Below are positions 53,262 through 59,807 of a stretch of 64,000 nucleotides of DNA, in pieces (the first letter of the stretch is position 1; each line of letters opens with the position of its first letter). The notes beneath the pieces were generated by a model. It worked only from the letters and a program-made list of their open reading frames with translations. It made no database searches and was not told where the DNA came from. This DNA comes from Escherichia coli (GTDB lineage Bacteria; Pseudomonadota; Gammaproteobacteria; Enterobacterales; Enterobacteriaceae), in assembly GCF_003334405.1 (NCBI RefSeq), contig NZ_QOWM01000002.1; one strand, given 5' to 3'. The position numbers and the translations under genes are program-made.

Positions 53262-54380
53262 ATGACTGGAGATAACACCCTCATCCATTCTCACGGCATT
53301 AACCGTCGTGATTTCATGAAGCTTTGTGCAGCATTAGCCGCCACCATGGGGTTAAGTAGCAAAGCCGCTGCAGAGATGGCCGAATCGGTTACTAACCCGC
53401 AGCGTCCGCCAGTTATCTGGATTGGCGCGCAGGAGTGCACCGGTTGTACGGAATCTCTGCTTCGTGCAACGCATCCAACGGTAGAAAACCTCGTACTGGA
53501 GACTATCTCTCTGGAGTATCACGAAGTGCTTTCCGCCGCCTTCGGTCATCAGGTCGAAGAGAACAAACATAACGCTCTCGAGAAGTACAAAGGGCAGTAT
53601 GTGTTAGTGGTGGATGGTTCCATCCCATTAAAAGATAACGGTATTTATTGCATGGTTGCCGGTGAGCCGATTGTGGATCACATCCGCAAAGCGGCGGAAG
53701 GCGCAGCAGCCATTATCGCTATCGGTTCCTGCTCTGCGTGGGGCGGTGTTGCCGCAGCTGGAGTTAACCCAACTGGCGCAGTCAGCCTGCAAGAAGTTCT
53801 GCCAGGCAAAACCGTTATCAATATTCCGGGCTGCCCGCCGAACCCGCACAACTTCCTCGCGACCGTTGCGCACATCATCACTTACGGCAAACCGCCGAAA
53901 CTGGATGACAAAAACCGTCCGACCTTCGCCTATGGCCGTCTGATTCACGAACACTGCGAACGTCGCCCGCACTTCGATGCTGGTCGTTTTGCCAAAGAGT
54001 TCGGTGATGAAGGCCACCGCGAAGGCTGGTGCCTGTACCACCTCGGCTGTAAAGGGCCAGAAACTTACGGCAACTGCTCAACGCTGCAATTCTGCGATGT
54101 TGGCGGTGTGTGGCCGGTGGCGATTGGTCACCCGTGCTATGGCTGTAACGAAGAAGGTATCGGCTTCCATAAAGGCATCCATCAGCTTGCCAACGTCGAA
54201 AATCAAACTCCGCGTTCACAGAAACCGGATGTTAACGCTAAAGAGGGCGGCAACGTCTCTGCAGGCGCTATTGGTTTGCTCGGCGGTGTGGTTGGGTTGG
54301 TTGCCGGTGTCAGCGTGATGGCGGTGCGTGAACTGGGTCGTCAGCAAAAGAAAGATAACGCTGACTCACGGGGAGAATAA
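53262..54380 (+). CDS. hybO: [NiFe] hydrogenase 2 small subunit
   Basis: 372-aa ORF with Tat signal ([13 protein letters not shown]), Fe-S cluster Cys ligands, C-terminal TM anchor. Confidence 0.95.
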
Positions 54381-54382
54381 CC

Positions 54383-55369
54383 GTGAACAGACGTAATTTT
54401 ATTAAAGCAGCCTCCTGCGGGGCATTGCTGACGGGCGCGCTGCCGTCTGTCAGTCATGCGGCTGCTGAAAACCGCCCGCCAATTCCGGGATCGCTGGGGA
54501 TGTTGTACGACTCGACCTTGTGCGTAGGCTGCCAGGCTTGCGTCACCAAGTGTCAGGATATCAATTTCCCTGAACGTAACCCGCAAGGGGAACAGACCTG
54601 GTCGAACAACGACAAACTGTCGCCGTATACCAATAACATCATTCAGGTGTGGACCAGCGGCACAGGGGTCAACAAAGACCAGGAGGAGAACGGCTACGCG
54701 TACATTAAGAAACAGTGTATGCACTGCGTCGATCCGAACTGTGTCTCTGTGTGCCCGGTCTCTGCACTGAAAAAAGATCCGAAAACCGGCATTGTCCATT
54801 ACGACAAAGATGTGTGCACCGGCTGCCGTTACTGCATGGTCGCCTGTCCGTACAACGTGCCGAAGTACGACTACAACAACCCGTTTGGTGCGCTGCATAA
54901 GTGCGAGCTGTGCAACCAGAAAGGTGTGGAACGTCTCGATAAAGGCGGTCTACCTGGCTGCGTAGAAGTGTGCCCGGCGGGCGCGGTGATTTTCGGTACG
55001 CGTGAAGAGCTGATGGCGGAGGCGAAAAAACGTCTGGCGCTGAAGCCTGGCAGCGAATACCACTATCCGCGTCAGACGCTGAAATCTGGCGACACTTACC
55101 TGCATACGGTGCCGAAATATTATCCGCATCTGTACGGCGAGAAAGAGGGCGGCGGTACTCAGGTTCTGGTACTGACGGGTGTGCCTTATGAAAATCTCGA
55201 CCTGCCGAAACTGGACGATCTTTCTACCGGTGCGCGTTCCGAAAATATTCAACACACCCTGTATAAAGGCATGATGCTACCACTGGCTGTGCTGGCGGGC
55301 TTAACCGTGCTGGTTCGTCGCAACACCAAAAACGACCATCACGACGGAGGAGACGATCATGAGTCATGA
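54383..55369 (+). CDS. hybA: Hydrogenase 2 ferredoxin-type 4Fe-4S subunit
   Basis: 328-aa ORF, GTG start, Tat signal (RRNFIKAAS), multiple CxxCxxCxxxCP motifs. Confidence 0.95.
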
Positions 55370-56537
55370 TCCACAACCGCTGGGCGGCAAAATCATCAGT
55401 AAACCGGTCATGATTTTTGGACCGTTAATCGTCATCTGTATGCTCCTGATTGTGAAGCGTCTGGTGTTCGGTCTGGGCTCTGTCTCTGACCTGAACGGCG
55501 GCTTCCCGTGGGGCGTGTGGATCGCGTTTGACCTGCTGATTGGCACCGGCTTTGCCTGTGGCGGCTGGGCGCTGGCGTGGGCGGTATACGTCTTTAACCG
55601 TGGGCAATACCATCCGCTGGTGCGTCCGGCGCTGTTGGCGAGTCTGTTTGGTTACTCACTGGGTGGCTTGTCGATCACTATCGACGTGGGTCGCTACTGG
55701 AACCTGCCGTACTTCTACATTCCGGGTCACTTCAACGTGAACTCGGTACTGTTCGAGACGGCGGTCTGTATGACCATCTATATCGGCGTGATGGCACTGG
55801 AGTTTGCTCCGGCACTGTTTGAACGTCTGGGGTGGAAGGTGTCGCTACAGCGACTAAACAAGGTGATGTTCTTCATCATCGCGCTCGGTGCGCTGCTGCC
55901 GACCATGCACCAGTCTTCAATGGGGTCGCTGATGATCTCGGCGGGCTACAAGGTGCATCCGTTGTGGCAGAGCTATGAAATGTTGCCACTGTTCTCGCTG
56001 CTGACGGCGTTCATCATGGGCTTCTCGATTGTCATCTTTGAAGGTTCGCTGGTGCAGGCGGGTCTGCGTGGCAACGGTCCGGATGAAAAGAGTCTGTTTG
56101 TTAAGCTGACCAACACCATCAGTGTGTTGCTGGCGATTTTCATCGTGCTGCGCTTTGGCGAGCTTATCTATCGCGACAAGCTGTCGTTAGCGTTTGCCGG
56201 TGACTTCTACTCCGTGATGTTCTGGATTGAAGTCCTGCTGATGCTCTTCCCGCTGGTCGTTCTGCGTGTGGCGAAGCTGCGTAATGATTCCCGCATGCTG
56301 TTCCTGTCAGCACTGAGCGCACTGTTAGGTTGTGCAACCTGGCGTCTGACCTATTCGCTGGTGGCATTCAACCCGGGCGGCGGTTACGCCTACTTCCCGA
56401 CCTGGGAAGAACTGTTGATTTCTATTGGTTTTGTGGCTATTGAGATTTGCGCTTACATCGTACTCATTCGTCTACTGCCGATACTTCCTCCTTTAAAACA
56501 AAACGATCATAATCGTCATGAGGCGAGCAAAGCATGA
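55359..56537 (+). CDS. hybB: Hydrogenase 2 integral membrane subunit
   Basis: 392-aa polytopic membrane ORF; start overlaps hybA end. Confidence 0.95.
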
Positions 56538-58731: not shown

Positions 58732-59212
58732 AGAGATAGCAGGTTTCCAGACCTCCCCGAAGGCGCAAGTACAGGCAGCGTTTGAAGAAATTGCCCGGCG
58801 TTCGATGCACGATCTCTCTTTTCTGCATCCTTCAATGCCGGTGTATGTTTCTGATTTTACGCTGTTCGAAGGTCAGTGGACGGGGTGTGTGATCACCCCG
58901 TGGATGCTGAGTGCAGTTATCTTCCCCGGCCCGGATCAACTCTGGCCGCTGCGCAAAGTGAGTGAAAAAATTGGTCTGCAACTGCCGTATGGCACTATGA
59001 CCTTTACCGTTGGCGAACTGGACGGTGTTTCGCAATATCTCTCCTGTTCGCTGATGTCGCCGCTTTCGCACAGCATGTCGATTGAAGAGGGCCAACGCCT
59101 GACGGATGACTGCGCACGAATGATCCTTTCGCTGCCAGTCACGAATCCGGATGTACCACACGCAGGGCGTCGCGCCCTGCTGTTTGGTCGCAGGAGTGGC
59201 GAAAATGCATGA
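58724..59212 (+). CDS. hybE: Hydrogenase 2-specific chaperone
   Basis: 162-aa ORF from ATG 58724 (MTEEIAGFQTSPKAQ...); overlaps hybD end. Confidence 0.9.
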   Translation: MTEEIAGFQTSPKAQVQAAFEEIARRSMHDLSFLHPSMPVYVSDFTLFEGQWTGCVITPWMLSAVIFPGPDQLWPLRKVSEKIGLQLPYGTMTFTVGELDGVSQYLSCSLMSPLSHSMSIEEGQRLTDDCARMILSLPVTNPDVPHAGRRALLFGRRSGENA

Positions 59213-59546
59213 GTTGTCTCTTTGCCAGAGCGCCGTTGAAATTATCCAACGGCAGGCGGAGCAGCACGATGTTAAGCGCGTCACCGCCGTGTGGCTGGAA
59301 ATTGGCGCGCTCTCCTGCGTTGAGGAGAGCGCCGTCCGTTTTAGTTTTGAAATTGTCTGCCACGGAACGGTGGCGCAAGGGTGCGATTTACATATCGTCT
59401 ATAAACCCGCCCAGGCTTGGTGCTGGGATTGCAGCCAGGTGGTGGAGATTCATCAGCACGATGCGCAGTGTCCGCTCTGTCACGGCGAGCGGTTGCGTGT
59501 CGATACCGGCGATTCGCTGATCGTCAAAAGTATTGAAGTTGAATAA
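59205..59546 (+). CDS. hybF: Hydrogenase nickel incorporation protein (HypA-like)
   Basis: 113-aa ORF from ATG 59205 (MHELSLCQSAVEI...), Zn-finger CWDC...CPLCHG. Confidence 0.9.
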   Translation: MHELSLCQSAVEIIQRQAEQHDVKRVTAVWLEIGALSCVEESAVRFSFEIVCHGTVAQGCDLHIVYKPAQAWCWDCSQVVEIHQHDAQCPLCHGERLRVDTGDSLIVKSIEVE

Positions 59547-59558
59547 CCGGAGTTAATA

Positions 59559-59807
59559 ATGTGTATTGGCGTTCCAGGCCAGGTGCTGGCTGTCGGTGAA
59601 GATATTCACCAGCTTGCGCAGGTTGAAGTATGTGGTATCAAGCGCGATGTGAATATCGCCCTGATTTGTGAAGGTAACCCTGCCGATCTACTGGGCCAGT
59701 GGGTGCTGGTACACGTCGGATTTGCCATGAGCATCATCGACGAAGATGAAGCCAAAGCCACATTAGACGCACTGCGCCAAATGGATTACGACATTACCAG
59801 CGCGTGA
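59559..59807 (+). CDS. hybG: Hydrogenase maturation factor (HypC-like)
   Basis: 82-aa [15 protein letters not shown]... Confidence 0.9.

Follow-up and report, generated by a model that had tools for sequence, protein, structure and literature searches.

The window analysed here is a stretch of 64,000 nucleotides (nt) of Escherichia coli DNA (RefSeq assembly GCF_003334405.1, contig NZ_QOWM01000002.1), and its subject is the hybOABCDEFG operon, whose eight genes lie on the plus strand at 53262-59807. The locus can be identified with high confidence as the canonical E. coli operon for periplasm-facing respiratory [NiFe] hydrogenase-2 (Hyd-2). Hyd-2 links H2 oxidation and H+ reduction to the quinone pool, as is known from the literature (PMC5902676). 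An earlier description of the window, made without database searches and called here the sequence-only reading, had proposed a complete operon, overlapping stop and start codons at five junctions as a sign of tight translational coupling, and twin-arginine translocation (Tat) signals on HybO and HybA, with HybC lacking one and exported as a hitch-hiker.

Genes and products of the hyb operon

The operon is complete, as had been claimed. The lengths of all eight open reading frames (ORFs) are multiples of three, internal stop codons are absent, the coordinates of all eight genes agree with the RefSeq gene table of an identical chromosome, and all eight proteins exceed the cut-offs of NCBIfam equivalog models, matching them essentially from the first residue to the last (Table 1). 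The genes and their order are the same as in the hybOABCDEFG operon of E. coli K-12, with no difference of substance, and an annotated comparison locus differs from the window by one base in 10.5 kb. When the segment 53000-60500 was compared with RefSeq E. coli chromosomes by megablast, it was 100% identical to many of them, and at least 80% of it was present in 5417 of 5426 complete E. coli genomes. In the RefSeq/PGAP annotation hybF carries the label hypA.

Further matches agree with these assignments: the Pfam families Oxidored_q6 and NiFe_hyd_SSU_C are found in HybO, and Fer4_11 and related families in HybA, while HybD corresponds to PDB entry 1cfz (residues 1-160 aligned), HybE to 2kc5 (residues 1-162), and HybC is identical in sequence to 6en9_L, a 567-residue precursor. 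The genes for the HybA ferredoxin and the NrfD-like HybB are located between those for the small and large subunits, in the order O-A-B-C, which is the layout of Hyb-type (group 1c) operons, and the endopeptidase, the HybE chaperone, the HypA-like and the HypC-like proteins of the maturation set are all encoded within the same operon. The locus serves as the reference case for Hyb-type [NiFe] hydrogenase operons of group 1c.

HybC carries the nickel-site motifs RIEGH (residues 12-16) and DPCMACAVH (544-552), and RICGVC is also present at residues 59-64. Mature large chains in the PDB have 552 residues (6ehq_L), against the 567 of the precursor, in agreement with the loss of a 15-residue C-terminal extension from HybC. 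The protease that cuts this extension is presumably HybD, an assumption based on family knowledge and on the name of model NF007777. According to the literature, HybC is matured in the cytoplasm and binds HybO.

Table 1. Coordinates of the hyb genes, of features within them and of flanking elements in the window
Feature	Position	Strand	Details and basis
hybO, hydrogenase-2 small subunit, 372 aa	53262-54380	+	ATG start; NF007779, 834.7 bits, residues 1-372
hybA, Tat-exported tail-anchored 4x[4Fe-4S] ferredoxin subunit, 328 aa	54383-55369	+	GTG start; NF008134, 596.9 bits, residues 1-327
hybB, integral-membrane quinone-interacting subunit, 392 aa	55359-56537	+	NF008133, 625.1 bits
hybC, [NiFe] large subunit precursor, 567 aa	56534-58237	+	NF007778, 1273.9 bits (cut-off 969), residues 1-567
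hybD, large-subunit maturation endopeptidase, 164 aa	58237-58731	+	NF007777, 312.9 bits, residues 1-164
hybE, Hyd-2 assembly and Tat proofreading chaperone, 162 aa	58724-59212	+	NF007776, 285.8 bits, residues 1-162
hybF, HypA-type nickel metallochaperone, 113 aa	59205-59546	+	NF009046, 245.3 bits, and TIGR00100 hypA, both residues 1-113
hybG, HypC-type large-subunit chaperone, 82 aa	59559-59807	+	NF007721, 173.5 bits
HybO Tat signal peptide, residues 1-37	53262-53372	+	NRRDFMK, residues 14-20, at 53301-53321; AAA/E cleavage site
HybA Tat signal peptide, residues 1-26	54383-54460	+	NRRNFIK, residues 2-8, at 54386-54406; predicted cleavage SHA/A
HybO C-terminal transmembrane anchor, residues 334-355	54261-54326	+	Top Kyte-Doolittle 19-residue window of HybO, 2.3
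C-terminal tail of HybC, 15 residues (553-567), cleaved off during maturation	58190-58234	+	PDB chain lengths
hybA/hybB 11-nt overlap	55359-55369	+	ATGAGTCATGA
hybB/hybC 4-nt overlap	56534-56537	+	ATGA
hybC/hybD 1-nt overlap	58235-58239	+	TAATG
hybD/hybE 8-nt overlap	58724-58731	+	ATGACTGA
hybE/hybF 8-nt overlap	59205-59212	+	ATGCATGA
yghW-hybO intergenic region, 188 nt, presumed hyb promoter/leader	53074-53261	+	Between yghW stop and hybO start
Palindromic repeat of REP/BIME type, Rfam RF02564 naRNA4	59823-59899		92.6 bits (-), 60.1 bits (+)

Tat signals and export of the large subunit

The Pfam TAT_signal model gave weak matches (E = 0.003 for HybO and 0.3 for HybA), a weakness usual for such a short model, and since it was too weak to decide on its own, the Tat assignment was settled with TIGR01409 on the N-terminal 60 residues (cut-off 16.7 bits). 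HybO scored 29.6 bits (residues 13-37) and HybA 23.3 bits (residues 2-26); the same segments of HybC and HybB gave no match, and the best N-terminal hydrophobicity window of HybC reached only 0.18. The twin-arginine motif of HybO is followed by a hydrophobic stretch and then by an AxA-type site, the small-subunit chains of Hyd-2 in the PDB begin at HybO residue 38/39 (E38), and mature HybO has been reported to start at codon 38 (PMC5902676). A C-terminal hydrophobic anchor is present in both HybO and HybA, proteins that are described as being made with Tat signals and C-tails (PMC5902676, PMC10924467).

Tat-dependent export of hydrogenase-2 is itself a literature finding (PMC4273604, PMC10924467, PMC5902676). 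HybC, which has no signal of its own, is exported bound to HybO, the case that gave the hitch-hiker mechanism its name (Rodrigue et al. 1999, as cited in PMC4273604 and PMC10924467), and the export of the two proteins is reported to be mutually dependent (Rodrigue et al. 1999, as summarised in PMC4273604). The HybO signal peptide is bound by HybE, which represents a proofreading step (PMC4273604). The structures 6ehq, 6en9 and related entries contain co-crystallised chains to which HybO and HybC of the window are identical or nearly so, as expected of stable partners. By the literature, HybC crosses the membrane through the Tat system on the signal peptide of HybO, and HybA is exported separately on its own signal. 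Other Tat hitch-hiker systems, such as HyaAB, DmsAB, FdnGH and PaoABC, likewise combine a signal-bearing partner with a signal-less passenger, HybOC being the founding example. The signals proposed for HybO and HybA, the lack of one in HybC and the hitch-hiker route therefore all hold, the last on experimental grounds in the literature cited. All of this is established knowledge, as are the operon itself with its gene order, the C-tail anchors and the proofreading by HybE.

Gene junctions and translational coupling

All five overlaps were found at exactly the bases claimed. The stop/start distances along the operon are +2 (O/A), -11 (A/B), -4 (B/C), -1 (C/D), -8 (D/E), -8 (E/F) and +12 (F/G), so that hybO/hybA and hybF/hybG do not overlap. 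At the hybO/hybA junction (54372-54391) the GTG start of hybA follows the TAA of hybO by 2 nt, GGAGAATAACCGTG; it is a further tight junction, outside the list of coupled junctions drawn up in the sequence-only reading.

That reading had named the re-annotation of start codons as what would abolish the overlaps. The next in-frame starts beyond the upstream stops are HybB M18, HybC M37, HybD L12, HybE M28 and HybF L4, and their use would cut away N-terminal segments conserved across 13 genera, namely PLGG[KR] in HybB, a stretch including RIEGH in HybC, MxILVLGxGN in HybD, GF..P....AF..IA in HybE and MHE in HybF, the last kept in all genera examined. The N-termini of these five proteins being conserved in this way, the annotated starts stand, and the overlaps with them; re-annotated starts were accordingly rejected. 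It is extremely improbable that the overlaps are annotation artefacts and that the real starts lie downstream of the preceding stops: equivalog models align from position 1-3 and Shine-Dalgarno (SD) motifs stand at the right distance from the annotated starts, even if residues 1-15 of HybE are not covered by the TIGR03993 domain model and show only moderate conservation, and if the SEQRES records of the PDB represent database sequences or constructs rather than native N-termini as measured. From these comparisons, the start codons that create the overlaps are firmly supported.

The conservation of the junctions was examined in species-representative genomes, in which a HybC scan yielded 80 loci; the eight E. 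coli proteins were mapped onto them by tblastn and stop/start distances were then taken. A close set of 56 loci (at least 69% HybC identity) includes Escherichia, Citrobacter, Kosakonia, Yersinia, Serratia, Providencia, Proteus, Dickeya, Aeromonas, one Vibrio and others, and a distant set of 23 loci (about 60% identity) includes Geobacteraceae, Sedimenticola, Sulfuricella, metagenome-assembled genomes of Nitrospirae and others. The A/B overlap is present in 53/53 close loci, with 8-17 nt (-8, -11, -14 or -17) and constant phase, against 6/20 distant ones; B/C overlaps in 53/55 (-4 or -23) against 0/21, C/D in 51/56 (-1) against 1/22, and E/F in 33/36 (-8 in 31/36), the distant set offering no pairs for comparison. 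The O/A distance is +2 or +3 in 48/53 close loci, with GTG as the start codon in nearly all, and in 3/19 distant ones. The least conserved junction is D/E, which overlaps in 33/54 close and 0/4 distant loci, its distance ranging from -17 to +210 among the close relatives. Since overlaps are common in close operons and mostly missing in distant ones, the compact junctions are a trait conserved within the Enterobacterales/Aeromonas/Vibrio lineage that Hyb-type operons at large do not share.

The Hyb-type operons of Yersinia, Serratia, Providencia, Budvicia, Brenneria and Dickeya share the hybOABCDE-hybF order of E. coli and its overlaps at the structural-gene junctions. They differ in having a His-rich hypB between hybF and hybG, which are adjacent in E. 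coli, where hypB is part of the separate hyp operon. In Yersinia, Providencia, Serratia and Budvicia (locus L032 of Yersinia aleksiciae, 9031-10170, and loci L018, L022 and L012) this hypB (NF007775, 478.6 bits) overlaps the start of hybG by 10 nt.

In E. coli no junction types are more frequent than short overlaps of -4, -1 and -8. The hyb junctions were set against local and general backgrounds. The local one was the annotated E. coli strain 2452 (NZ_CP031833.1), used for the neighbouring ~50 kb only, where 2/33 same-strand adjacent pairs overlap, as compared with 5/7 in hyb (Fisher p = 6e-4); against only the 14 neighbouring pairs spaced by 30 nt or less, p = 0.017. In most prokaryote groups about 15% of co-directional pairs overlap (PMC6728339), and 24% of unidirectional E. 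coli pairs lie within -8 to +6 nt (PMC10666635); at a background of p = 0.15-0.25, the probability of at least five overlaps in seven is about 0.001-0.013. Among the short-distance pairs of E. coli, genes for subunits of heteromeric complexes are 4.5-fold enriched (PMC10666635). The enrichment of overlaps in hyb is real, yet nothing exceptional in an operon whose products belong to a single complex.

Each internal hyb gene has an SD match 6-10 nt before its start, located within the preceding gene except for hybG, whose SD (GGAG) falls in the 12 nt that separate hybF from hybG; the SD of hybB, inside hybA, is the strong motif GGAGGAG, that of hybD is weak, those of hybA, hybC, hybE and hybF are strong or moderate, and the motifs inside upstream genes are also conserved in relatives. 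The predicted duplex energies with the anti-SD sequence are -8.1 (hybA), -9.5 (hybB), -5.6 (hybC), -3.5 (hybD), -10.3 (hybE), -7.0 (hybF) and -6.1 (hybG) kcal/mol, as compared with a predicted mean of -2.3 kcal/mol over all operon positions. The predicted cost of opening the mRNA from -18 to +6, calculated on 120-nt fragments, is 3.9 kcal/mol for the leader gene hybO, 5.7 for hybD and 6.1 for hybG (5.7-8.2 for hybD, hybG and hybC together), and 12-15 kcal/mol for hybA, hybB, hybE and hybF, which is close to that of random intragenic sites (median 11.8 kcal/mol).

Two models of coupling are current, RNA unfolding and reinitiation (PMC12548453), and the combination of SD strength and predicted opening cost suggests that the hyb junctions fit both, some of them leaning more on one than on the other. 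In E. coli, overlaps of -1, -4 and -8 nt predict coupling, and four of five native -4 overlaps were strictly coupled, bioBF being the one that was not (PMC6728339). The class of coupled pairs that has been analysed spans -8 to +10, and a -8 overlap is reported to be less efficient than -4 or -1 (PMC10666635). Five of the seven hyb junctions (O/A, B/C, C/D, D/E and E/F) have distances within this span, with A/B (-11) and F/G (+12) just outside. Compared with short-overlap coupled pairs of E. coli such as hyfHI, menDH and astDB, hyb shares the ATGA, TAATG and NTGNNTGA geometries and the placement of the SD in the upstream gene, and its genes similarly specify a single complex, both its subunits and its assembly factors; it differs at A/B, where 11 nt fall outside the class, and at O/A, which uses +2 with a GTG start.

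Tight translational coupling, as proposed in the sequence-only reading, is a reasonable interpretation of most hyb junctions and probably the correct one. A ribosome that ends one hyb gene would promote initiation on the next at the -11, -4, -1, -8, -8 and +2 junctions, by termination-reinitiation, by unfolding of local mRNA structure or by both, and the outputs of the genes would thereby be coupled along a weakly expressed mRNA. Several points weigh against this interpretation. The literature search found no experiment in which translation over the junctions of hyb was followed, so that coupling is here inferred from geometry. The opening costs come from predictions on 120-nt fragments only, the starts in relatives are the candidates closest to where homology places the E. 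coli start, and the related loci are phylogenetically non-independent. The A/B overlap lies beyond the coupled class and the -8 overlaps belong to its reportedly less efficient members. HybO and HybC, the two proteins that need to be equimolar, are encoded by non-adjacent genes, and the accessory proteins HybD to HybG need no fixed stoichiometry with the enzyme.

Other such points lead to a different account, in which the overlaps are the passive outcome of genome compaction and of drift of stop and start codons, each gene being initiated from its own SD with little or no coupling. Every downstream gene does have its own SD, which would allow independent initiation; the initiation regions of hybD and hybG are predicted to be accessible; bioBF shows that an overlapping pair of E. 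coli may be uncoupled (PMC6728339); distant homologous operons work with spaced genes; the D/E junction varies widely even among close relatives; and the accessory proteins need not equal the structural subunits in amount. This account is nevertheless unlikely, given that the A/B, B/C, C/D and E/F overlaps are kept in 91-100% of the Enterobacterales, Aeromonas and Vibrio relatives despite varying protein termini, that, in contrast to the leader gene hybO, no open initiation region is predicted for hybA, hybB, hybE or hybF, and that four of the five overlaps tested in E. coli were strictly coupled (PMC6728339), with coupling decaying within ~20 nt (PMC6728339, PMC10666635).

A more elaborate form of coupling, offered here as a speculation that is probably not correct, would recognise two deliberate classes of junction that set a graded, hard-wired expression ratio. 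Junctions of a reinitiation type would have -1 or -4 overlaps, weak or moderate SD motifs and open mRNA (hybC and hybD), while those of an unfolding type would have distances of -8, -11 or +2 and strong SD motifs buried in structure (hybA, hybB, hybE and hybF). Because distant Hyb-type operons are without it, such an architecture would go back to an acquisition in the ancestor that Enterobacterales, Aeromonadales and Vibrionales have in common.

Flanking sequences and significance of the locus

Upstream of the operon, a single weak sigma-70-like match was found at 53063-53090. Consensus scans gave 4 promoter-like sites against 6.8 expected from shuffled sequences, and 15 terminator-like sites against 9.0 +/- 3.6; with counts at or near the shuffle expectation, internal promoters and terminators were given no weight. 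A motif resembling IscR type-2 sites with one mismatch, TTTACCACACATTTATTATGGTTAT, is located at 53161-53185 on the minus strand, 77-101 nt upstream of the hybO ATG. It is only suggestive and is not claimed as an IscR site, since the count of the motif over the whole window is at chance (11 against 9.8 expected). Expression of hyb is de-repressed in an iscR mutant (PMC5902676).

Downstream, a palindromic repeat of the repetitive extragenic palindromic (REP) or bacterial interspersed mosaic element (BIME) type begins 16 nt past the hybG stop, before the stop of the convergent yghU at 59930. It explains the median of about 15 matching places per genome in the megablast comparison, and it was the only Rfam match at E of 1 or less over 52600-61100, none being found inside the operon. 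No canonical intrinsic terminator was predicted between hybG and yghU, and for this reason the repeat may serve as a 3' stabiliser or terminator of the hyb operon.

Two ORFs antisense to hybC on the minus strand, at 56582-57532 (316 aa) and 57632-57985 (117 aa), are artefacts of codon usage and not genes. The gene contains only four TTA, CTA or TCA codons, three of which (at 56582, 57632 and 58037) bound the antisense ORFs exactly, and it is this scarcity, in a codon-aligned frame, that produces such shadow ORFs. Further upstream, two ORFs (51832-52257 and 52257-52667, plus strand) together make up a split yghX, corresponding to the frameshifted YghX family hydrolase pseudogene of RefSeq. An ~85-nt repeat pair downstream of exbD (48714-48798 and 48827-48910, 96% identical to each other), seen as cross-matches when the window was aligned with strain 2452, is probably also of REP type. 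The IS1F element in the flotillin gene (yqiK) of strain 2452 (NZ_CP031833.1) is absent from the window, where yqiK is presumably intact, and window positions 781-6863 and 6841-50000 align on either side of the insertion. Because of this insertion the annotation of strain 2452 is not valid as exact window coordinates before ~6.8 kb, and the absence of IS1F indicates that the window comes from a different E. coli strain.

What this analysis adds to the known picture of hydrogenase-2 is modest: conservation of the overlapping junctions extends over Enterobacterales, Aeromonas and Vibrio, distant Hyb-type operons mostly lack them, and the start codons on which they depend are firmly supported. The hyb operon would accordingly make a reasonable natural test bed for the effect of serial coupling on the ratios of enzyme subunits to their maturases.

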